A stretch of DNA of 64,000 bases, taken from assembly GCA_963708295.1 (NCBI GenBank), contig CAVPSJ010000004.1:512001-576000 (forward strand), written 5' to 3'. Source of the stretch: an uncultured delta proteobacterium. GTDB taxonomy: Bacteria; Desulfobacterota; BSN033; UBA1163. Shown here in pieces: positions 1,054-27,608 of this stretch; the stretch's first letter is position 1, and the number at the start of each line of letters is the position of its first letter. The notes under the pieces were generated by a model. That model saw only the letters and a list, made by a program, of their open reading frames with translations. It was not told the origin of the DNA and did no database searches. The position numbers were made by a program, and so were the translations under genes.

Positions 1054-2097
1054 CTAAGGCGCGAAATAGGGACGGAGTTGATGGGCTACCTCCTCGGGCG
1101 GCTCTACAACGAACCCGTCATGGAGAATGCTGGACGAATACCAGGTGTCACTGACCGGGTAGGTCTGCACGCTGGATCGAGAGACAATCTTCATTCCCGC
1201 CCAAAAATAGCGACTGAGTTTCTTATCGAGGGGTCCCGAATAGATGGCGTAGTTGAAGCAAGAAAACCCTTTGTCATGATAAGCCCTTAACACCCGTGAA
1301 ATACCCTCGGCAAGATTTTCCCAATCGTTATCGTCAAATTCCAAGAAGTTAGACTTATCCCTCACGACGGCATTCACCTCGTCCTCTTTCATTGGAGCAA
1401 ACGGAGTGAACCATTCCGTAGATCCCAAGCTTCCCAGATACCTTTCGCCAAGCTCTTTCTCCTTCTCGATTAACTCCTCCCAAAAATTCCGAGAATACTT
1501 CCTGTGATGGGACCTTCCTTTTTCTGTGTAGACCTTGATCAGGGAATGGGGACCATGAGACAGAATCACCTGAAGGTGAGGATGGACCATGCTGGCTCCG
1601 CTGGGGTAAAGATAGTTACCGCCGATCTCAGCATATTCGACGCCGCCTACTTGGTGAGCCCGTCGGATATAAAAATCCGCCAGCCTGAGAGCGTCCGTAA
1701 GAATACTCGGCGAAAACTCGTTGAGCTTTAAATAATGTTTCCGGGTGATGGCGATGATCGCGGAATATTGCTTATGGGCAAAAAGGTTGGGGAACAGGAT
1801 CGCCTCACCCCGCGTCAACCTTCCCTCGGAGATAAAATCAATCGGGAATGTTGGAGTCGAGGTTGCCACTTTTCCCGGGCAGAAAAAACACTTTCCCCGA
1901 GTTTCTTCAATCAGCTTTTCTAAAACAGCTGCGTCTGTTTTGTAAACCCCGGCCCAGAATGCCCGGCCGGTGCGTATGAAGGAAGTAAAACCGCTGAGAG
2001 GATCCTCACGGTATTCAATTGGTTGACAATCGATCTCAAAATTCTTAAGCGGGTTATGAAGCAAGGCCTCTTCTTCAAACTTTTTGAACCGGATCAT
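1054..2097 (-). CDS. Galactose-1-phosphate uridylyltransferase-like HIT-family protein
   Basis: EYREDPL, CFFC, LFPNLF and GASMVHPHLQ (HxHxQ) motifs. Confidence 0.8.
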   Translation of the reverse strand: MIRFKKFEEEALLHNPLKNFEIDCQPIEYREDPLSGFTSFIRTGRAFWAGVYKTDAAVLEKLIEETRGKCFFCPGKVATSTPTFPIDFISEGRLTRGEAILFPNLFAHKQYSAIIAITRKHYLKLNEFSPSILTDALRLADFYIRRAHQVGGVEYAEIGGNYLYPSGASMVHPHLQVILSHGPHSLIKVYTEKGRSHHRKYSRNFWEELIEKEKELGERYLGSLGSTEWFTPFAPMKEDEVNAVVRDKSNFLEFDDNDWENLAEGISRVLRAYHDKGFSCFNYAIYSGPLDKKLSRYFWAGMKIVSRSSVQTYPVSDTWYSSSILHDGFVVEPPEEVAHQLRPYFAP

Positions 2098-2849
2098 CTT
2101 TTCCTCCCTTGGGCTCGGATTTCCAAAAGAACAAGCCTTAGTTTCTTGCCGGAAGCTTTCGCTGGATGAATATGTCCTTTTTACAGGATTTGCTGTTGAA
2201 ATTCAAACAGGAATAAGTCAGCGGATAACCGATGATTCATTCTCTTCTTCAGAGCAGACGGACATGTTGTGTCGCAAATAGAAGACCAAAAAATCCCTAC
2301 CGGGAAATAATACCGTTACGGCGTACCGAAGAGAAGTTCAAAAACAGAAAGCTAACCCAAAAGGTTAGCTTTCTCCGAATTGTTTATTTGGAAACCCGCC
2401 TTCTCCAAAATAGCTCACGGGTTCCCTTTTTTTTTCGGGGGATCGGCTTGGAACCTACCCCCTATCTATGGGAAATTTCCATCTGTGAATTTGTCCGTAT
2501 GTTGCTTTGCTTGCTTTCGTTCTCCTTTCCTATAATCATTATAATCTATTTTTCTTTTTTGAGCCAATCGACGAAACCCGATGCCGGGCCTCAGATCTTC
2601 GTTCTTCTCCTCGCTCATACCATTCGGCTCAACACGGGAAATGCCAAAGCAAAGGGTTTCTCAAATCAAGTAGCGCGGATGGGCTTAAAGGATAACTTCT
2701 ACCCCATTTTCAGGATTCCGGGATTCGCTAAGAGACGAACTCGTAGCCCAGCGACATGGTAGCCCGGTGACGAGGCGAAGCGCCTGGATGTTTTTGGCCG
2801 ACACTTCATCAAATAATTATGGTATAATACCACTCACCAGGGGATTTAG

Positions 2850-3095
2850 ATGAATTTTTCAACATACACCGACATCATCGTTTCCTTTGCTCAGAACAAC
2901 CCGGTTATCGTAATTGTTATTGTGCTGGGCCTTCTTTACTTCATCTACCGGAAGCCAAAACTTTTTTTTGGCCTTCTCGGTCTCGGGCTGGTGCTGGCAG
3001 GACTGTTTTATCTGGTCATGACGATGGCGGGGTCGGGGTCGGAGAAGAAGAAAACACTGACTCACGAGGAAGAGCAATCCGATACCACCCGTTGA
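2850..3095 (+). CDS. Small two-TM membrane protein
   Basis: Two hydrophobic segments; extended -10 TGGTATAAT at 2820-2828. Confidence 0.65.
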   Translation: MNFSTYTDIIVSFAQNNPVIVIVIVLGLLYFIYRKPKLFFGLLGLGLVLAGLFYLVMTMAGSGSEKKKTLTHEEEQSDTTR

Positions 3096-3302
3096 CGCTT
3101 CGCTTTTACCAAACCAGGGAGTTCTTTGACTCGCGACACCCATCTCGTGTCCAATCTACTCCCGTCCAAAGGGGTATTCAGGATGGTCAGGCGTGGGCAA
3201 TTCTTTGCCATTCGTTCAAACTGTACGGCAAAATTTGGCCACTTATTATATTCTATCTTCAAAAAACCTATAAAAAACAAAAACTTGAAATCGCTGACCA
3301 AT

Positions 3303-3318
3303 TGGCATAGAATATGCT
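3303..3318 (+). promoter_or_regulatory. Candidate sigma54 (-24/-12) promoter
   Basis: TGGCATAGAATATGCT = GG-N10-GC, preceded by an A-rich IHF-like tract (AAACAAAAACTTG). Confidence 0.55.
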
Positions 3319-3454
3319 CACTTATCCTCGCAGAATTTGTCAAAGGAACACGTGTCTCCAAGCGAGGTGACGGCCTGACCGGCCGCAAAACGGTATGAGA
3401 AGCTTTACCTGATGCTGGATTTTGGCCGATCACTTGACAACGATTCATGAGATC

Positions 3455-4555
3455 ATGATCTCGATCTTCACCGGAAAGAAAGAATTCAAAATTCGTCAGG
3501 ACATCCTCCGCGGTGTCTACGAAGAAAACCTCTCGATACTCGGCAGGGGCCAACCCCCCCTGTCACGACGGAGATCTTTCTTTGCGAAAGGAATTTTCTT
3601 GTCCATGGTGCTCTCCGCCTTTGTGGTTCTCATGCCCGACCAACACACGGGCAGTTCATTCGCGCCAGCAGAACGCACCCTGAAGATCAGCTCACTTCCC
3701 GTTTCGCTTCCCCCGGCAATGGTTTCAGCAGAATTGTCCCCGGATACGGACAAGTACCCTCATCTTCCCGCCGCAAGTGCTGCCCCGGAAGTCCCGCCGA
3801 ACTCTTCCGAGTTCAGTGCCATTCTAAACAATCACAATGTATCCCTCATGCGGATGCTTGGGCTGAAAATTAGGACGATCATGATCGATGCAGGCCATGG
3901 CGGATCCGATTCGGGCACCATTGGAAAGACCGGTACGAAGGAAAAGGATATCACCCTCGATCTCGCTAAGAGACTGAAAGCCCATTTGCTCAAGAGCAAC
4001 CTCCACGTCCTCATGACGAGGGAGGATGATTCGACCGTGCCACTTCTCGAACGGGTGACCCTTGTCCGTGAAGCAAAAGCCGACCTTTTCATCTCCATTC
4101 ATCTCAATTACTTGCCAAAGAAGAACACGAATATCATTGAAACGTATTATTTCGGACCTTCCGATGACAAGAAAACGCTGAGGCTCGCCGAGAAAGAAAA
4201 CGCAGGATCGGAATATGGATTGAGCGATTTCAGGGAAGTCGTGGAAATGCTCGGCACGACCATGAAGCTTCAGGAATCCAAGGAGTTTGCTGAATCCATT
4301 CAGGCGAATCTGTTTCTGAATCGGAGTAAACATACAAAAGATATACAGGACCACGGCGTAAAGAGGGCACCCTTCGTGGTCCTTCTGGGCGTGGACGTGC
4401 CCTCCGTGCTGGCAGAGGTGTCCTGTCTCAGCAATCCTGAAGAAGAGCTTGATCTCAATTTTGAAAGCCACAGAGAGAATATTGCCAGTTACCTTGCAAC
4501 CGGTATTTTCGACTATCTCAATAAAGGAGCCCGAACCCATGAAGCCAAAAGATGA
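3455..4555 (+). CDS. Membrane-anchored N-acetylmuramoyl-L-alanine amidase (Amidase_3, AmiA/B/C-type)
   Basis: IDAGHGG, EKDITL, FISIHLN and LAEVSCLSN zinc/catalytic motifs; N-terminal TM; ATG at 3455 is in frame with ORF 3422. Confidence 0.9.
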   Translation: MISIFTGKKEFKIRQDILRGVYEENLSILGRGQPPLSRRRSFFAKGIFLSMVLSAFVVLMPDQHTGSSFAPAERTLKISSLPVSLPPAMVSAELSPDTDKYPHLPAASAAPEVPPNSSEFSAILNNHNVSLMRMLGLKIRTIMIDAGHGGSDSGTIGKTGTKEKDITLDLAKRLKAHLLKSNLHVLMTREDDSTVPLLERVTLVREAKADLFISIHLNYLPKKNTNIIETYYFGPSDDKKTLRLAEKENAGSEYGLSDFREVVEMLGTTMKLQESKEFAESIQANLFLNRSKHTKDIQDHGVKRAPFVVLLGVDVPSVLAEVSCLSNPEEELDLNFESHRENIASYLATGIFDYLNKGARTHEAKR

Positions 4556-5567
4556 GCAGAAGGAAGACAACGTCCTGTTTGTCGGCATCGACCTTGGAAC
4601 ATCACGGAGTGCCATCTCTTCGAGCAATGGCATGCGGGAATGGATTGAGAGTTACGCCGGATGGCCGAAGGACTTTATCGCTGAGCAGGTCGTCGGAAAA
4701 CCGGTGCTCTTCGGAGCCGAAGCACTGCAGCACCGGCTTTCTCTCGACATCTGCAGGCCCCTTGAACGGGGCATCATCAAGGAAGGGATCGAAAGTAGCG
4801 AGAGGGCGGTCAAAGAAATCATCCGACATCTTATTGATCTTGCCAAGCCTGAGGCCGCCCACAAGATTCACGCAGTGGTCGGGGTCCCCGCCGATTCGCT
4901 AAAAGTCAATAAGCTTTCCATCCGGAGGGCGGTCGTAGAATATGTGCATACGCTCATGGTGGTATCGGAACCCTTTGCGATCGCCTACGGAATGAATCTG
5001 CTGAATGACGCGCTCATCATCGACATCGGGGCCGGGACCATTGACTTCTGCATCATGCATGGGACCATTCCTTCTGAAGAAGACCAGCGGACCATTTTCA
5101 CGGCAGGCGACTACATCGATGAGCAACTCTTCAATTATCTCATTGAGAAATACCCGAATTCAAAGTTCAACAAGAACATGGTGCGGCAGTTCAAGGAGAA
5201 ATTCAGTTTTGTGCGCGACATCCAAGAACAGATTCGCGTCGAGCTGCCGGTGAACGGCAAACCGGTCATGCATGACATCAAGGAGGAGATTCGGCGGGCA
5301 TGCGAGAGCATGCTGCCGTCACTCGTTGAGACTACGACCGAAATGATCGCCCGGTTTGATCCCGAATTCCAGATGAAGATAAAGAACAATATCGTTCTTG
5401 CGGGAGGAGGAAGTCTGATCCGAGGGATTGCTGAGTACCTACAGAATGCCTTGAGGGAATACGGCACCTGCAAGGTCACCTGCGTTGCAGACCCGCTCTT
5501 TGCGGGCGCGGATGGGGCGCTCAAGCTCGCCCAAGACATGCCGTCCAAATACTGGGAAACACTCTGA
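4539..5567 (+). CDS. MamK/Mad28-type actin-like ATPase
   Basis: GIDLGTS, YAGWPKD, VVGVPA, VVSEPFAIAYG, IDIGAGT, EEDQRT..AGDYID, NIVLAGGGS and C-terminal LKLAQDMPSKYW resemble MamK rather than MreB; RBS AAGGAG at 4524; overlaps the amidase end. Confidence 0.85.
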   Translation: MKPKDEQKEDNVLFVGIDLGTSRSAISSSNGMREWIESYAGWPKDFIAEQVVGKPVLFGAEALQHRLSLDICRPLERGIIKEGIESSERAVKEIIRHLIDLAKPEAAHKIHAVVGVPADSLKVNKLSIRRAVVEYVHTLMVVSEPFAIAYGMNLLNDALIIDIGAGTIDFCIMHGTIPSEEDQRTIFTAGDYIDEQLFNYLIEKYPNSKFNKNMVRQFKEKFSFVRDIQEQIRVELPVNGKPVMHDIKEEIRRACESMLPSLVETTTEMIARFDPEFQMKIKNNIVLAGGGSLIRGIAEYLQNALREYGTCKVTCVADPLFAGADGALKLAQDMPSKYWETL

Positions 5568-5577
5568 GCGCAGGCCG

Positions 5578-6582
5578 ATGTTTGAAGGTCTGAGGCGCCC
5601 CCTGAGAGAGCACATGACCGGCGAAACGATACTTGTCGTAGACGCAGGTGAGGACATAGATCAGAGAATGACCGCTACGCTCGAGGCGGAGAGCTACCTG
5701 GTCTATCCCGTCTCCAGCCAAGATGTGAACGCTGAGCTGGCTGAATTACTCCAGCCTTCGTTGACCTACATCAAGCCCCTTGACCTGAGCCCAACGGGGC
5801 TCAAACCCTGTAAAGCCATTCATGCCATTCCTCTCTTAAGAAAGGTCCCTGTTATTATCTTAGCCTCCATGAAAAAACCGCTGAGTCCCGACACCTCCAG
5901 GGAATACGGGGTCGTGGATTTTCTCGAACCGACATTCGGCCCGGAAGAGCTCATCGAAAAGACTCGATCGATTCTGGGAAAGACGGCTCCTTCGCGAAGC
6001 CCGATAGAGGATGGACCGACCCCCTTGCCACAACCTCAAAGGGAAACGAAGAAAAAGCGCCCTGCGTTTTTCCTGCCTGCGATCGGCATCGTGACCCTTC
6101 TGGTGATTGCCGGAGTGGGTATTCTGGCTTTTCAGCAATTTATGCCAGCCCAGAATATTTTGCCTTCTTCCACCGTGGCAGCCCCTGTTCGGGTTCCATC
6201 CCCCGCTCCTCGGGCTGAATCGAAACCGCAGTTGCCCCCGGAAAAGAACGTCGTAAATACTTCCGACCCTGTATCGCCCGTACCGTCCACGCCGCCCGGG
6301 CAACCCTCGTCGCGCTCATCGGAATCCGCATCCCAACCCCCACGCACGCCGTTCTACTCTGTCCAGCTGGGAGCCTTCAAGAATGAAGACAAAGCGCAGG
6401 CCCTCGCGAAGAAGTTCCGGGAAAAAGGATACGACGCATTTATTCATCTGGGCGTAGCAAAGGATAACTTTCCGATTTATAGAGTACTGGTCAGCAAGTA
6501 TGAAGAAAGAAAGGCTGCCAAAAAGCTGGCAGGAGAAATTCAATCGAGGGAAGAAATCCAGACCACCCTATACGGCGAATGA
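5578..6582 (+). CDS. Pseudo-receiver domain - TM - Pro-rich linker - SPOR domain protein
   Basis: N-terminal REC-like fold (ILVVD..VPVIIL..GVVDFL), TM FFLPAIGIVTLLVIAGVGILAF, C-terminal YSVQLGAFKNEDKA SPOR motif. Confidence 0.85.
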   Translation: MFEGLRRPLREHMTGETILVVDAGEDIDQRMTATLEAESYLVYPVSSQDVNAELAELLQPSLTYIKPLDLSPTGLKPCKAIHAIPLLRKVPVIILASMKKPLSPDTSREYGVVDFLEPTFGPEELIEKTRSILGKTAPSRSPIEDGPTPLPQPQRETKKKRPAFFLPAIGIVTLLVIAGVGILAFQQFMPAQNILPSSTVAAPVRVPSPAPRAESKPQLPPEKNVVNTSDPVSPVPSTPPGQPSSRSSESASQPPRTPFYSVQLGAFKNEDKAQALAKKFREKGYDAFIHLGVAKDNFPIYRVLVSKYEERKAAKKLAGEIQSREEIQTTLYGE

Positions 6583-6600
6583 TGATCAAGACGCGAAGCC

Positions 6601-7554
6601 GTGTCCACCGTCTTCTCAAAACCGACTCAGACTCGAGATAAGCTGCTGAAAACGAAGATACTGGTGTTCCTGTTCCTTCTGGCATGCTTACCCGGTTGTT
6701 ATTCCGGAAGCGTCAAGCCGCTGCTGAACCGTCCTGAATTTAAGGCTGAGAACGAACCGATTCGAATCTTAAGAATCCTTCTGATCACCGACGTCTCCTA
6801 TCAAAAAGACGAAATCGAGAAATTTGTTTCAAAATGCTCGCGCCTTGCTGAAATGCAGGTTGGGATACGCCTTGAAATTGTTGATGGGTACCAAATCAAA
6901 TGGGAAGATGAGTTAGAGGATATCATCAAAATGGAAATGAGGATTGCGGCGGACACCTGGAGTAAGAGGGAACGATTTGATATCGCCCTTACTTTTGTGA
7001 ATTTTGTTCAAAGAGTCAGGGGCGGTAAATTTCCCCTGGGGGCCACCGACACATTTTTTTGGAGGTATCTCTTCGTAAAAGAGCTGGATCCATATATTCT
7101 TCTACACGAGCTGTTTCATGCCTTTTTGCTCGAGCAAGGTGATTCAGGAAGCTGGGTCATGAAGGCAGCAAGACCTCCTTATGGAGGCGAATGGTACTGG
7201 CTTACCCCGGAGGATAGGAAGAAGGTACTTCGTAATAAATGGAGAGATTTCAATATCATGCCTGCTACCGAGCATGAAGAAGCAAGGAAATCGAACGAAA
7301 GCTGGTTTTACTACAACTTGGGGTCGACCTATCTTCAACGAAGGGAGTTTGAGCAGGCCATTCTATTGTTGAACAAATCTCTTGAGATAAACCCGGCGTA
7401 TGCCGACGCTTACGTCAGTCGGGGGAGGAGTCATTATTTTAGAGGAGAATACGACAAATCTTGGGAGGACATTAAAAAGGCACAAGACTTGGGCTACACA
7501 ATTCCCGCTGAATTTCTCAATGATCTTCGCAGGGCCTCTGGTAGAAATAAGTAA
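6601..7554 (+). CDS. Putative lipoprotein with HEXXH zinc-peptidase motif and C-terminal TPRs
   Basis: Lipobox-like LPGC after a hydrophobic stretch; LLHELFHAF; YYNLG..SLEINPAYADAYVSRG TPR pattern. Confidence 0.7.
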   Translation: MSTVFSKPTQTRDKLLKTKILVFLFLLACLPGCYSGSVKPLLNRPEFKAENEPIRILRILLITDVSYQKDEIEKFVSKCSRLAEMQVGIRLEIVDGYQIKWEDELEDIIKMEMRIAADTWSKRERFDIALTFVNFVQRVRGGKFPLGATDTFFWRYLFVKELDPYILLHELFHAFLLEQGDSGSWVMKAARPPYGGEWYWLTPEDRKKVLRNKWRDFNIMPATEHEEARKSNESWFYYNLGSTYLQRREFEQAILLLNKSLEINPAYADAYVSRGRSHYFRGEYDKSWEDIKKAQDLGYTIPAEFLNDLRRASGRNK

Positions 7555-7718
7555 AGACGTGTTGCTGAAAGAGTGAATACAAAATCTCTTCCCCAAACAC
7601 AAAATTGTAAGGAGTAATGAATAGTTTTCGCTGTCCTGTTTGCCATGTACTCCGTTATATCTAAATGCAACCTAACGACGGAAGTGAATTATCCTTTGTT
7701 CATCTGCAACCAACGGGG

Positions 7719-8732
7719 CTAAAAGCCATGAGACTCGTTGTTCGCCTCTTTTTTTTCCTCTTTATATTTTAGTTTAGGCGCCTCGATCGTAACGGTTACG
7801 CCTGGCGGGACCGAACGGGTTAACCAAACATTGCCTCCGACAATCGAGCCGGCCCCAACGACCGTCTCACCCCCTAGAATGGTTGCGCCAGCATAGATGG
7901 TAACGTGGTCTTCGATGGTTGGGTGGCGTTTCACCCTTCTAAGCGTATCGCCCTTTTCTTCCATAGGAAGACTGAGGGCCCCCAGGGTAACTCCTTGATA
8001 AACTCTGACGAATTCGCCAATGACACTGGTCTCTCCAATCACAACCCCTGTCCCGTGGTCGATGAAGAAATGCCGGCCGATGAGGGCTCCCGGGTGGATA
8101 TCAATACCGGTGACGCTATGCGCATACTCCGTCATCATCCTCGGGATCAAAGGAACCTCCTGACCGTGAAGCTCGTGGGCAAGACGGTAGGTCATGATAG
8201 CCATGATGCTTGGGTAACCAAAGATAATTTCATCAAAGCTTTTTGCGGCGGGATCTCCTTGGTAGGCAGCTTTAACGTCTTCGGCCAGAATTTTTCTAAG
8301 GCCTTTCAATTTCTTCAACAGGGCAAGGGCTTCCTTTTGTCCTCTTTCTGAGCAAGAGGTGCAGACCATTTGATGACGACGGCATTCATGACGGATACTC
8401 AGGGTGATTTGCTTGGATAACAGTTCAAAAAGGCTATTTATTTCGATGCCCATTTGGTAGGCCAGGTTGAAACTATCCACCTCATGCTCCCCAAAATACC
8501 CGGGGAAGAGGACCTTTTTAAGACGCTCGACGATCTCAATCACGACCTCTCGAGAAGGCAACCCTACCAGGTTCAGGTGATGCAGGGTATCCCTATCCTG
8601 GCAACTCTCCACCAGACCAGAAACAATCTCTGGAAGTTCTTGACGAAACAAAGGGGGCAGCTCACATTCCACATGGTCAGTCTCTGATGAGAAAAGCGTT
8701 TCTTCAGGACATTCGCAATTAATTTTATTCAT
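7719..8732 (-). CDS. cysE: Serine O-acetyltransferase (long EpsC/CysE type)
   Basis: GDPAAKS, TGIDIHPGA, FFIDHGTGVVIGET and RHPTIED motifs. Confidence 0.9.
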   Translation of the reverse strand: MNKINCECPEETLFSSETDHVECELPPLFRQELPEIVSGLVESCQDRDTLHHLNLVGLPSREVVIEIVERLKKVLFPGYFGEHEVDSFNLAYQMGIEINSLFELLSKQITLSIRHECRRHQMVCTSCSERGQKEALALLKKLKGLRKILAEDVKAAYQGDPAAKSFDEIIFGYPSIMAIMTYRLAHELHGQEVPLIPRMMTEYAHSVTGIDIHPGALIGRHFFIDHGTGVVIGETSVIGEFVRVYQGVTLGALSLPMEEKGDTLRRVKRHPTIEDHVTIYAGATILGGETVVGAGSIVGGNVWLTRSVPPGVTVTIEAPKLKYKEEKKEANNESHGF

Positions 8733-24918: not shown

Positions 24919-27608
24919 TTAAAGCTTCCGGATTTTCACCGCGCAGACCTTGAATTCAGGGATCTTGGCTACAGGATCCAAGGCGTCGATGGTCAGCAGG
25001 TTGGCAGCTGCTTCCTTGAAGTGAAAGGTCATGAAAACGACACCCGGTGGAAGATTGTCGGAAACCTTTGATTTGACCTGGACCCTGCCGCGACGAGAGG
25101 TGACTTCGACCAATCCGTTATCCGGCTTGATTCCTAACCGTTGCGCGTCTTCAGGATTGATCTCGATCACTCCCTCCGGATAGATCTCCGAGAGTCCCTT
25201 CGACTTCCGGCTGATCACCGTGTGGTAGTGGTAGAGCACCCGGCCTGTGGTCAACAGGAAAGGATATTTCTCGTCGGGGAGTTCCGGAGCGGGCGCATAA
25301 GGCGTGACGTGAAACTTTCCTTTGCCCCGGCTGAACTTGTCTTTATGGAGGAAGGGAGTGCCCGGATGGTCTTGCGTCGGACAGGGCCACTGGAGTCCCA
25401 ACCCTTCCAACCGTCGCGTACTGCATGCCACCGTATGAGGGCGTCACGGAAGCGATCTCGTCCATGATTTCTTTGGGTGAAGAATATCCCAGCGGATAAC
25501 CCAGGCGTGATGAGAGATCGCAGAGGATCTGCCAGTCTGGCCGGCTATTTCCAATGGGCTCGATCGCCTTGCGCACGCGCTGGACCCGTCGCTCCGTGTT
25601 TGTGAAGGTTCCATCCTTCTCGGCAAAGCTCACTCCGGGAAGGACCACGTGGGCCAATTCGGCGGTCTCCGTAAGAAAGATGTCCTGGACGACGAGGAGG
25701 TCGAGGTGTTTGAGTTCCTCCTTCACCTGATTCATATTGGGGTCCGAAAGCAATGGATTCTCTCCGAGGATGAAAAGGGCCTTCACTTTCCCCTCGGCGA
25801 TCCCCTTCATCATCTCCATCAGAGTCAGCCCGGGACGGGGCGGAAGAGAGACGCCCCACGCCTTTTCAAACCTCTGCCGAACCGCAGGGTCGTCGACCCG
25901 TTGATAGCCCGTATACACATTCGGCAGGCCGCCCATGTCACAGGCTCCCTGAACATTGCTTTGTCCCCGGAGGGGGTTGACTCCCGAAGAAGGTTTACCG
26001 ATCTGTCCTGTGGCCATGGACAGGTTCGCCAGGGCAAGAACGTTGTTCGTCCCCGTGACGTGCTGGGTGATGCCCATCGCATAGAGAATGGAGGAATTGG
26101 AGGACTGGGCATAAAGACGCGCTGCTTCCACGATATCGCTTGCCGGCACACCCGTGATCTTTTCCACCGCTTCCGGAGTATAATCTTTCACCGAATCGGC
26201 AAGGGCCTCAAATCCTTCTGTGCGTTCGTCCACGAAGGCCTTGTTGAGCCATCCCCGGGAAATGATGACGTTCAGCATCCCGTTGATCAAGGCCACGTCC
26301 GTCCCGGGCTTTTGTTGAAGCCAGAGATGGGCGTAGTCCACAAGGTCGATCCTCCGGGGATCGGCCACAATGAGCTTGGCCTTTTTCTGCCTCACGGCCG
26401 CTTTGACCTCGAGGGCAATGACAGGATGATTCTCGGATGTGTTTGAGCCGATGACGAAAATGCAGTCCGCATTCCTGATCTCTCCGATGGGATTGGTCAT
26501 CGCTCCGCTTCCAAATGCCATCGCCAGACCGGCGACGGTGGAGCTGTGTCAGAGACGGGCACAGTGGTCTACATTGTTCGTGCCCAGGGCAGCCCGGGCG
26601 ATCTTCTGGAGGAGATAGTTCTCTTCATTCGTGCACTTGGCAGAGACAAGGACACCGATGGCATCGGCTCCATGCTGGGCCTTTACCTTTTTCAGACCGT
26701 TCGCCACGGTATCTAGGGCCTCATCCCAGGAGGCCTGGCGAAACTTCCCGTTCTCCTTGATCAGGGGCTCGGAGAGCCGGTCAGGACTGTGCACGTAGTC
26801 GAAACCAAACCTGCCCTTCACACAGGTCCAGCCTCGATTCACTCCCAGGTCAGGATCAGAAGTAACCTTCACCACACGGTTGTTCTTTCACGTTGAGAAC
26901 AAGTGTGCATCCGACACCGCAATAAGAACAGGTGGTCGGAACTTTTTTCAACTCCCATTCCCGTCCCTCAAAGCGTCCCGCCTTTTCGCTCAGTGCCCCC
27001 ACGGGACAGACACTGACACAGTTCCCGCAGAAGACACAGGGGGTCTCCTGCATGGAGCGATCAAAGGAGGCAGCAATCTTCGTAGCGAATCCCCGTTTGG
27101 AATGGTCCACGGCTTCGCAGTATTGCACTTCATGGCAGACGGTGACACACCTTCCGCACAGGATGCACTTATTGTAATCCCTTTCATAGAAAGGGTTGGA
27201 GGATCGAATGGGGTAGTTGTGTTTCTCTCCCTCGAAGCGCGATTTCCGAATCCCAAATTCGTAGGCGTATTTTTCCAGCTTGCAGGAACCGCTCTTTTCA
27301 CAGGTCATGCAATCATAAGGATGGTCGGAGAGTAAAAACTCGATCGCCAGTCTTCGGGCATCCTGCACCCGCTTTGTGTTGGTTCGGACCACCATCTTGT
27401 TGGCCACGGGATAGGCGCAGGAAGCCACCAGGGTCCTGGATCCCTCAACCTCCACCACGCATAAACGACAGGCCGTGGTCGGCGTCAGATCTTTCCGGTA
27501 GCAAAGATGAGGGATAGGGATCCCTTCCTTCTTGCAGGCGTCAAAGATCGTCATTCCCGCCTGGGCTTTCACCTCACGGCCGTCGATGGTCAATTGCATC
27601 TCTGCCAT
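24919..27608 (-). CDS. fdhA: Formate dehydrogenase alpha subunit with selenocysteine and NuoG-like N-terminus; frameshifts near 26880 and 25420
   Basis: Fe-S motifs, [46 protein letters not shown] and IPEFKVCAV. Confidence 0.9.
26518..26551 (-). promoter_or_regulatory. Sec UGA codon with bacterial SECIS hairpin
   Basis: In-frame TGA at 26551-26549 followed by the stem-loop CCGTCGCC-GGTCT-GGCGATGG. Confidence 0.85.

Follow-up and report, generated by a model that had tools for sequence, protein, structure and literature searches.

The actin-like protein MamK serves as a marker of magnetotactic bacteria. When mamK occurs in non-magnetotactic genomes it has been read as a relic or as a transfer (Lin et al. 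2018, citing Lefevre 2013, in the available part of PMC5955933), and such homologues have been filtered out of surveys (available text of PMC7449369 and 10.1101/682252), although in one of these only 227 of 2,798 MamK-like metagenome sequences stood beside other mam genes (PMC7449369). Here we describe a MamK-family actin gene flanked by genes for a peptidoglycan amidase and a SPOR-domain protein in an uncultured delta proteobacterium (Desulfobacterota; BSN033; UBA1163; assembly GCA_963708295.1, contig CAVPSJ010000004.1). The window, as we call the whole stretch that was analyzed, comprises 64,000 nucleotides (512,001 to 576,000 of the forward strand), with the feature of interest at 3303..7554; the genome it belongs to is 91.5% complete, in 20 contigs.

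The closest described arrangements differ in which of the three parts they share with this locus. The FtsA-FtsN-AmiA/B/C septal loop of Escherichia coli comprises a cytoplasmic actin-fold protein, a bitopic SPOR protein and an AmiC-type amidase, and the shape complex of Helicobacter pylori comprises the bactofilin CcmA, the transmembrane wall-binding protein Csd5 and the Csd hydrolases. The combination of actin-fold protein, bitopic SPOR protein and AmiC-type amidase recurs in our locus, but its actin is of the MamK type (the genome has an FtsA of its own), its amidase is predicted to be membrane-anchored with a cytoplasmic tail, its SPOR protein carries a pseudo-receiver where FtsN has a short tail, and the module is dispensable within a genus. 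The Helicobacter complex is similar in joining a cytoplasmic polymer, a bitopic peptidoglycan-binding adaptor and wall hydrolases; it does so with a bactofilin, an SH3 domain and LytM/carboxypeptidases, whereas our locus has an actin, a SPOR domain and an Amidase_3 enzyme.

Among the actins, MamK itself (solved structures 5jyg and 5ljv) aligns with the window protein over its full length; the family cut-off is passed and the nucleotide-binding motifs are the same. The window actin differs in lying outside any magnetosome cluster, in belonging to a separate clade and in having as partners an amidase and a SPOR protein, not proteins of the MamJ/MamY type. BeeR, a MamK-related actin of Verrucomicrobiota and the one non-magnetotactic family of this kind to have been studied, forms a three-stranded tubular filament of unknown function, and the available text of its description mentions no amidase link (PMC11929497). 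Like BeeR, the window actin is a non-magnetotactic relative of MamK without a known role, but the two fall into distinct clades, as detailed below. Mad28 has the actin fold too and likewise occurs in Thermodesulfobacteriota and Nitrospirota; according to the available part of PMC10653835 it is 15-17% identical to MamK, with a Ser in the phosphate-2 motif and no EP, whereas our actin has DxGxG and SEPF. A full-text literature search found no description of an actin-amidase-SPOR operon (the supplementary trees of PMC5955933 and PMC7449369, which it did not cover, may show the clade). The locus suggests that cytoskeleton and cell wall are connected in a way not yet described.

Several comparisons place the actin in the MamK family. 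Against the NCBIfam subfamily model for MamK (NF040964) it scores 416.7 bits for a cut-off of 400, over positions 1-330 of the 335 in the model (418.5 bits when the whole genome was searched); this margin is small, and proteins verified or labeled as magnetosomal reach 446-508 bits. Pfam detects the actin fold (MreB_Mbl, 2.3e-25). Residues 6-341 align with the solved Magnetospirillum MamK 5jyg with an E-value of 3.6e-90, compared with 6e-42 for solved BeeR (8r2n) and 1e-14 for solved MreB, and identity to a verified MamK from a Nitrospirota magnetosome is about 43%. The MreB cut-offs are missed by far (PRK13927, 83.3 versus 293 bits; TIGR00904, 71.3 versus 365.75), as is that of BeeR (220.1 versus 530), whose N-terminal extension of 30-50 amino acids is missing: the actin core begins after about 12 residues. 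Models for Alp7A and ParM-like proteins give marginal scores only. The genome contains this one MamK-family gene, two MreB-like genes elsewhere and an FtsA gene at 485 bits.

With motif names after PMC10653835, phosphate 1, connect 1 (EP), phosphate 2 (DxGxG) and adenosine (GG) are all present, and D18, E144/P145, D162xG164 and G289/G290 are invariant or nearly so across 37 actin sequences. The original prediction had called this protein MamK/Mad28-like, not MreB-like, on the basis of four motifs (GWPKD, VVSEPF, GTIPSEEDQ and QDMPSKYW), all of which occur in the translation. The scores and solved structures agree with a MamK type distinct from MreB. The Mad28 half of the claim has to be dropped: the protein has IIDIGAGT, that is, an intact DxGxG, as well as SEPF, and its match to solved MamK is full-length. 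For comparison, the Mad28-like gene of a real magnetosome cluster (L068) obtains 48 bits on the MamK model, against 417 for the window actin. Judged from its sequence, then, the protein is a MamK-family actin and not an MreB, BeeR or Mad28, and it is compatible with filament formation.

Is it nevertheless the MamK of a magnetosome? Of nine core mam genes, four were looked for across the genome with family models, and none passed its cut-off: MamA reached 86 bits of 200, MamE 150 of 800 and MamP 32 of 300, while MamI had no match at all. The best matches were generic TPR, HtrA and PDZ proteins. Applied to a Nitrospirota magnetosome cluster (genome G445, from the class to which many of the relatives belong), in which a Mad28-like gene adjoins the mam genes, the models scored far higher (MamM 389 for a cut-off of 350, MamP 230, MamB-like 224, MamA 159, MamK 469); models of this kind do perform on deep-branching magnetotactic organisms. 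Within the window, Pfam scans of 52 open reading frames (ORFs), mostly of about 100 residues or more, revealed no Mam, Mad, MreC or MreD family, as had been stated from the sequence at the outset. The notion of a mamK displaced from a magnetosome island elsewhere does not apply either, MamA, E, I and P being below cut-off genome-wide. The window actin is not a magnetosome MamK in the functional sense. The non-magnetosome role suggested for it earlier is upheld by this search and by the synteny with an amidase across two phyla, to which we now turn.

When each species was represented by a single genome, 50 loci were recovered, labeled as Nitrospirota (36), Thermodesulfobacteriota or delta (12) and Planctomycetota (2). 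Actin identity ranges from 73 to 97% across the 48 non-planctomycete loci. An amidase gene lies directly upstream of the actin gene in all 45 of these that could be evaluated, and the two frames overlap by 17-35 nucleotides in 48 of 49 loci, including the window and the loci of genomes G026 and G294; the exception (L044) is a broken copy. Downstream, a REC/SPOR gene is found in 37 of the 45 evaluable loci; a 34-residue remnant is left in two, and six have none, one of them having a SPOR-TPR protein instead. Beyond these three genes the flanks vary from locus to locus (ScpA, GT2 glycosyltransferases, PPDK, RibD and others). The fourth gene of the operon as first proposed, encoding an HEXXH-TPR protein, stands behind the module in only 2 of the 48 non-planctomycete loci (L004 and L005). 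The conservation of synteny that had been anticipated is therefore real for amidase and actin, mostly with REC-SPOR, in two phyla, but it neither extends to the HEXXH-TPR gene nor makes REC-SPOR obligatory, since 8 of 45 loci lack it in intact form. The conserved unit is an amidase-actin core pair with REC-SPOR as its usual third member: a module of two to three genes, not four.

Some loci depart from this scheme. Four of the Thermodesulfobacteriota type (L008, L009, L010 and L011) have lost the REC-SPOR gene and kept the amidase-actin pair with a small membrane gene; it is in two of these that the 34-residue remnant, 74% identical, is seen. In one Nitrospiraceae-labeled metagenome-assembled genome the amidase-actin-REC region occurs three times, each time on a contig of its own (L030, L044 and L053); the amidase frame of L044 is broken, only part of the actin matches in L053, and strain mixtures or paralogs are both possible. 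In a planctomycete locus labeled Gemmataceae (L047), a MamK-like actin 45% identical to ours has no adjacent amidase, with a SAVED-domain ORF and an FG-GAP repeat protein nearby.

The amidase matches Amidase_3 (Pfam, E-value 5e-44). Its predicted order is a cytoplasmic tail of about 45 amino acids, a single transmembrane helix (residues 41-62 from the Met at 3455, by hydropathy), a variable linker and the catalytic domain. Across 17 sequences there is no variation at H159, E174, H227 and E332, in motifs GHGG, EKD, SIH and AEV, and we take these residues to be the zinc ligands and catalytic Glu. The protein aligns full length with AmiC (4bin), AmiA (8c2o) and AmiB (3ne8), unbroken through an insert that is presumably the autoinhibitory regulatory helix of AmiA/B/C; with amidases of the CwlV and LytH types, the alignment covers the first 100 residues or so only. 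No AmiA/B/C cut-off in NCBIfam is reached, and there is no AMIN-like region. Amidase_3 genes number two in this genome and one in G246, a 100% complete genome of the same genus. The amidase that they have in common bears a signal peptide and an AMIN-like N-domain, and its sequence is 31% identical to the catalytic domain of the module amidase. In the tail, L29, V32, N36 and L37 are invariant in 17 sequences; they belong to a motif, ILRGVYEENL, that was found nowhere else in the genome. The module enzyme thus appears to be an AmiA/B/C-type catalytic domain carried by an N-terminal cytoplasmic tail and a transmembrane helix in the inner membrane, as opposed to an exported soluble enzyme with AMIN such as the periplasmic housekeeping amidase.

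In the third protein the SPOR domain is readily recognized (Pfam, 4.5e-13). The receiver signal is weak, with 25.8 bits on the NCBIfam PhoB model and no Pfam REC match at E 0.01; homologs reach up to 65 bits with Pfam Response_reg, and both domains were detected in 24 of the 28 downstream homologs scanned. The predicted structure (numbered from the ORF start at 5578) has a (beta-alpha)5 fold with a predicted local distance difference test score (pLDDT) above 90 over residues 14-135, and a fold search aligned it with CheY-like receivers at template modeling scores of 0.77-0.82. It also has a transmembrane helix at residues 166-187, the only one given by hydropathy as well, a SPOR domain of beta-alpha-beta-beta-alpha-beta topology and two disordered linkers; pLDDT is 82-96 over REC and SPOR. 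The receiver domain is real; it would face the cytoplasm, with the C-terminal SPOR domain in the periplasm. The position of the acceptor Asp was set through an alignment of the L038 homolog with RR468, where an Asn of L038 stands opposite the Asp. This position is a Lys in the window protein and a Lys, Arg, Gln or Asn in 17 of 18 aligned sequences, with Asp in L034 only, which makes the domain a pseudo-receiver. Pseudo-receivers usually serve protein contacts. Nitrospirota members have long acidic linkers. The SPOR protein is below the FtsN cut-off (TIGR02223, 29.5 versus 107.65 bits, over the SPOR part only). A receiver protein in the real magnetosome cluster L068 was considered as a counterpart and rejected, as its 35% REC similarity is generic, its Asp is kept and its C-terminal half is different.

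An exhaustive profile search collected 168 cluster representatives at E-values of at most 1e-30. Quick maximum-likelihood trees were built, with Shimodaira-Hasegawa-like approximate likelihood ratio test (SH-aLRT) values as support. The 20 amidase-linked actins and a Nitrospira representative form one clade (SH-aLRT 97). Its nearest relatives are labeled Nitrospira (62% identity) and Acidobacteriota (51%), followed by Gemmatimonadota and Verrucomicrobiota (44-47%). Labeled magnetosome sequences of the alphaproteobacterial type form a separate clade (98-99), as does BeeR (100). Phylogeny, one of the checks proposed with the original prediction, thus sets the actin apart from both BeeR and alphaproteobacterial-type MamKs. 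Next outside the amidase-linked clade, with weak support (SH-aLRT 81), comes the verified MamK of a Nitrospirota magnetosome, and an approximately unbiased (AU) test that moved it to the other magnetosome clade did not reject this alternative (p 0.39). An earlier AU test rejected a grouping of just the four labeled magnetosome sequences (p 9e-9), but it was ill-posed, because some unlabeled rows of that clade may come from magnetosomes too, and because the group had been chosen with the tree already in view.

The amidase tree mirrors the actin tree, and Thermodesulfobacteriota-labeled sequences nest inside the Nitrospirota ones (97-98). Provided that the submitters labeled their genomes correctly, this suggests that the whole module was transferred between phyla. 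Over 15 loci, the pairwise distances of one protein correlate with those of the others (r 0.79-0.87 among the three). All three genes are under purifying selection, with ratios of nonsynonymous to synonymous rates (dN/dS) against relatives of 0.04-0.056 for actin, 0.19-0.27 for amidase and 0.25-0.29 for REC-SPOR.

The distribution is patchy. At 1e-60, 17 of the 401 genomes sampled from the phylum of our organism give a match, and not one of the 11 others in its family does; the two best matches (G026 and G294, 66-70%) are amidase-linked and lack REC-SPOR. G246, with its one amidase, has no module, which establishes presence and absence within one genus. Of 301 genomes sampled from the class to which one Nitrospirota carrier belongs, 79 match: 55 with at least 61% identity and 24 with 42-47%; the one genome of the latter type that was examined contains the magnetosome cluster described above. 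None of the 301 has both types of actin, a pattern among related genomes and not a test. No module match was found in plasmid records (72,556), phage records (50,697) or IMG/VR.

The search also brought up MamK-family actins in other settings. A protein of 768 amino acids (P0160), named magnetosome protein MamK of an uncultured bacterium in a source, consists of a full FtsZ (TIGR00065, 351 bits) fused to a C-terminal MamK-family actin (446 bits). About 14 representatives, among P0126-P0150, are 520-1230 amino acids long and end in a MamK-like domain 40-47% identical to the window actin. They form one clade (support 99-100), and the eight inspected start with a conserved coiled-coil-like segment (…KKERFREWTKSLG…) followed by long stretches rich in E, K, S and P. 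We considered that these might be amidase-actin fusions and rejected the idea, their N-terminal parts having no Pfam domain or transmembrane helix. Tandem pairs of MamK-family genes occur in four genomes of the window's phylum (G220, G278, G318 and G329). The one examined, L072 on contig C1 of G278, scores 459 and 376 bits and is adjoined by transporters and methyltransferases, with no mam family among the flanking ORFs. In one family of this phylum (f21), seven of eight sampled genomes encode a 338-residue MamK-like actin 47% identical to ours; at the single locus examined (L071, on contig C1 of G019) it directly follows co-directional ORFs of 651 and 117 residues that have no Pfam match, and there is no amidase.

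How might these proteins work together? The unit is a chromosomal accessory module with a translationally coupled core pair; it is accessory in that an FtsA, two MreB-like genes and another amidase, of the AMIN type, are encoded elsewhere in the genome, and that G246 does without it. The order and overlap of the genes, their domains, clade, selection and distribution are observed; starting from the topology and from established properties of the families, we infer each binding step and the cellular role. In the mechanism that we favor, at a probability of about 0.5, a MamK-like filament positions the AmiC-type amidase through its cytoplasmic tail, and the pseudo-receiver-SPOR protein reads the denuded glycan that results. 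The actin would most likely polymerize in the cytoplasm. By binding the amidase tail, the filament would fix where stem peptides leave the wall; the topology fits, the tail being the sole cytoplasmic part of the amidase and containing invariant residues. The SPOR domain would then bind the denuded glycan made by the amidase, an established property of SPOR domains as stated in the abstracts of the literature. The pseudo-receiver, in which the loss of the acceptor Asp fits an interaction domain, would couple this wall mark back to the filament or to the amidase. A cytoskeletal patch or track that is anchored in the wall and reinforces itself would result, and its output is most likely local wall remodeling (cell separation, curvature, or the marking of a pole or site) and not magnetosome positioning. 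Its nearest working analog is the FtsA-FtsN-AmiA/B/C loop of the divisome, with the CcmA-Csd5-Csd complex of Helicobacter as a second. In favor of the mechanism are the constant linkage of the genes amid varying flanks, the mirrored trees, the purifying selection and the invariant ATP-binding and catalytic residues.

A number of observations weigh against this mechanism. Of the 45 evaluable loci, 8 have lost the REC-SPOR gene or kept a mere remnant, and it is missing beside the pair in G026 and G294, so the read-back step is not essential. The overlap of genes and their co-inheritance speak for co-expression, not for contact. The regulatory-helix insert retained in the amidase suggests that the enzyme may depend on an activator from outside the module, and its predicted structure (mean pLDDT 52, from 17 sequences) is too poor to use. 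The patchiness of the module (55 of 301 genomes in the Nitrospirota class, 0 of the 11 others in the window's own family) comes with no phenotype that could be linked to it. Expression data are of limited help. In two soil metatranscriptome runs from two studies, contigs 90-99% alike cover all three genes, one crossing the actin/REC junction and one the REC-SPOR/HEXXH junction; they stem from relatives, and RNA libraries may hold DNA. They amount to weak evidence of expression and are no proof of a single transcript.

The same genes could serve another purpose. The filament may be a wall-anchored track that positions cytoplasmic or membrane cargo, with amidase and SPOR protein doing no more than clamping it to the sacculus. 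We regard this as possible but rather unlikely. An actin that is MamK-family over its full length would suit such a role, as would the long acidic linkers of the Nitrospirota REC-SPOR proteins and the position, weak as it is (SH-aLRT 81), of the Nitrospirota magnetosome MamK as next outgroup in the best tree; the absence of genomes with both actin types (0 of 301) fits alternative uses of one kind of track, but this count from related genomes is no test. The changing flanks mean that no cargo gene travels with the module, and a mere anchor would not need the invariant catalytic residues of the amidase. Alternatively, actin and amidase may be mechanically independent, a general cytoskeletal or ATPase actin being co-expressed under the same regulation with an extra cell-separation set. 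The presence of a separate FtsA and MreB in the host and the AmiC-like nature of the amidase would agree with this idea. We nonetheless find it unlikely: the two genes keep their overlap however far the sequences have diverged and whatever the flanks, and the amidase has exchanged export signal and AMIN for a cytoplasmic tail whose invariant residues are hard to explain without a cytoplasmic partner.

The reading of non-magnetotactic mamK that is in print (available part of PMC5955933) would make the gene a relic of a lost magnetosome cluster, or an acquisition from a magnetotactic bacterium, with no function tied to its neighbors. Although there are signs of module transfer between phyla, this is very improbable here. 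The clade is separate from the verified magnetosome MamKs (SH-aLRT 97), the actin has a dN/dS of about 0.05 and overlaps the amidase in 48 of 49 loci, and it is carried by 55 of 301 genomes of the Nitrospirota class; MamA, E, I and P are below cut-off, when the models score far higher on a real cluster, with MamM above its cut-off. Those signs of transfer, together with presence and absence within a genus, might also evoke a mobile element, either a ParM/Alp-like segregation actin or a phage lysis cassette with its amidase. We give this hardly any credence, given the lack of matches in plasmid, phage and IMG/VR records, the marginal Alp7A and ParM-like scores, and a locus with no flanking repeats and no adjacent integrase, ParR-like gene or holin.

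The favored mechanism, in which the filament positions the amidase and the SPOR protein reads its product, can be carried further, at the price of becoming rather doubtful. The filament would direct the amidase to write a denuded-glycan mark, the SPOR protein would read it, and the filament would thereby be fixed at one spot on the sacculus as a stable landmark or ruler inside the cell, a wall-clamped cytoskeleton of its own kind. The module and the Nitrospirota magnetosome MamK would be sister uses of one ancestral filament, the magnetosome MamK having been recruited from a wall-coupled actin, or the reverse, and the non-magnetotactic copies would not be relics.

The features of the locus are collected in Table 1. 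The ORF list has four co-directional, tightly packed ORFs on the + strand (3422-4555, 4449-5567, 5485-6582 and 6601-7554), in line with the operon as first described, and three starts had to be moved. The most likely amidase start is an ATG (MISIF...) kept in 17 aligned homologs. The actin ATG has a ribosome-binding site, AAAGGAG, 8 nucleotides upstream, and the overlap of amidase stop and actin start that had been reported is confirmed at 17 nucleotides. For the REC-TM-SPOR protein (TM, transmembrane helix), the most likely start is an ATG (MTGETIL...) conserved in the aligned homologs, and the predicted structure of the longer ORF is of low confidence over its residues 1-13; the gap to the actin gene becomes 46 nucleotides, not the 10 given originally. 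The 18-nucleotide gap before the HEXXH-TPR gene holds with its GTG start. No terminator-like site was seen on the + strand within 3400-7554, no terminal repeats flank the trio, and Rfam had no match within 2000-8000.

Table 1. Coordinates of the module and adjoining features in the window
Feature	Position	Strand	Basis
Small two-TM protein, 81 aa, module membership uncertain	2850..3095	+	tblastn matches beside module
Promoter-like element, TTGAAA-17 nt-TAGAAT	3285..3313	+	Consensus scan, 10/12
N-acetylmuramoyl-L-alanine amidase, predicted to be membrane-anchored	3455..4555	+	Amidase_3, conserved start, TM hydropathy
MamK-family actin-like ATPase, 342 aa, amidase-linked subclade	4539..5567	+	NCBIfam MamK, match to solved MamK
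Pseudo-receiver (REC), linker, TM, Pro-rich linker, SPOR protein	5614..6582	+	SPOR (Pfam), structure model, homologs
HEXXH-TPR lipoprotein-like gene, neighbor only	6601..7554	+	TPR repeats, HELFH motif

The promoter-like element ahead of the amidase overlaps a conserved word, TGGCATAGAATATGC. A pattern TGG(C/T)A-N7-TGC lies 150-215 nucleotides upstream of the amidase start in all 12 Thermodesulfobacteriota- or delta-labeled loci and in none of 32 others, with a background of 0.016 per 400 nucleotides. The upstream element could be read equally well as a sigma-70 promoter, with an extended -10 (TGGTATAAT) in relatives, or as a sigma-54-like one.

The HEXXH-TPR ORF gave no peptidase family match, and its 244 homologs are named only as TPR or hypothetical proteins. 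In G246 this gene and the small membrane gene are about 360 nucleotides apart, with no trio between them. The HEXXH-TPR gene is therefore a resident neighbor, and the trio an insertion or a deletion within the genus. By tblastn, the small membrane gene accompanies the module in 10 loci of the Thermodesulfobacteriota type, upstream in L004 and L005 and downstream in L006-L012 and L041, and none was detected in the Nitrospirota loci; its survival without the module in G246 makes its membership uncertain.

Two other regions of the window deserve mention. At 25343-26875 on the - strand, a gene for a formate-dehydrogenase-like molybdopterin subunit is interrupted by a single in-frame TGA which, read as selenocysteine, gives HCARLUHSSTVAG, a typical selenocysteine site; the adjoining ORFs, 26856-27608 and 24919-25431, are in other frames. 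Between 13942 and 19215, six consecutive - strand ORFs of 113-322 residues have no Pfam match at 1e-5.

For the MamK family, these results provide a large part of its 'dark' members with a defined and conserved genetic context. Surveys based on mamK should screen out the amidase-linked clade, for which an adjacent amidase gene is a simple flag. If the contacts proposed here hold, the module would be a third wiring of bacterial actin to peptidoglycan, after MreB-RodZ and FtsA-FtsN, and would give the question of how the magnetosome cytoskeleton originated something concrete to start from.

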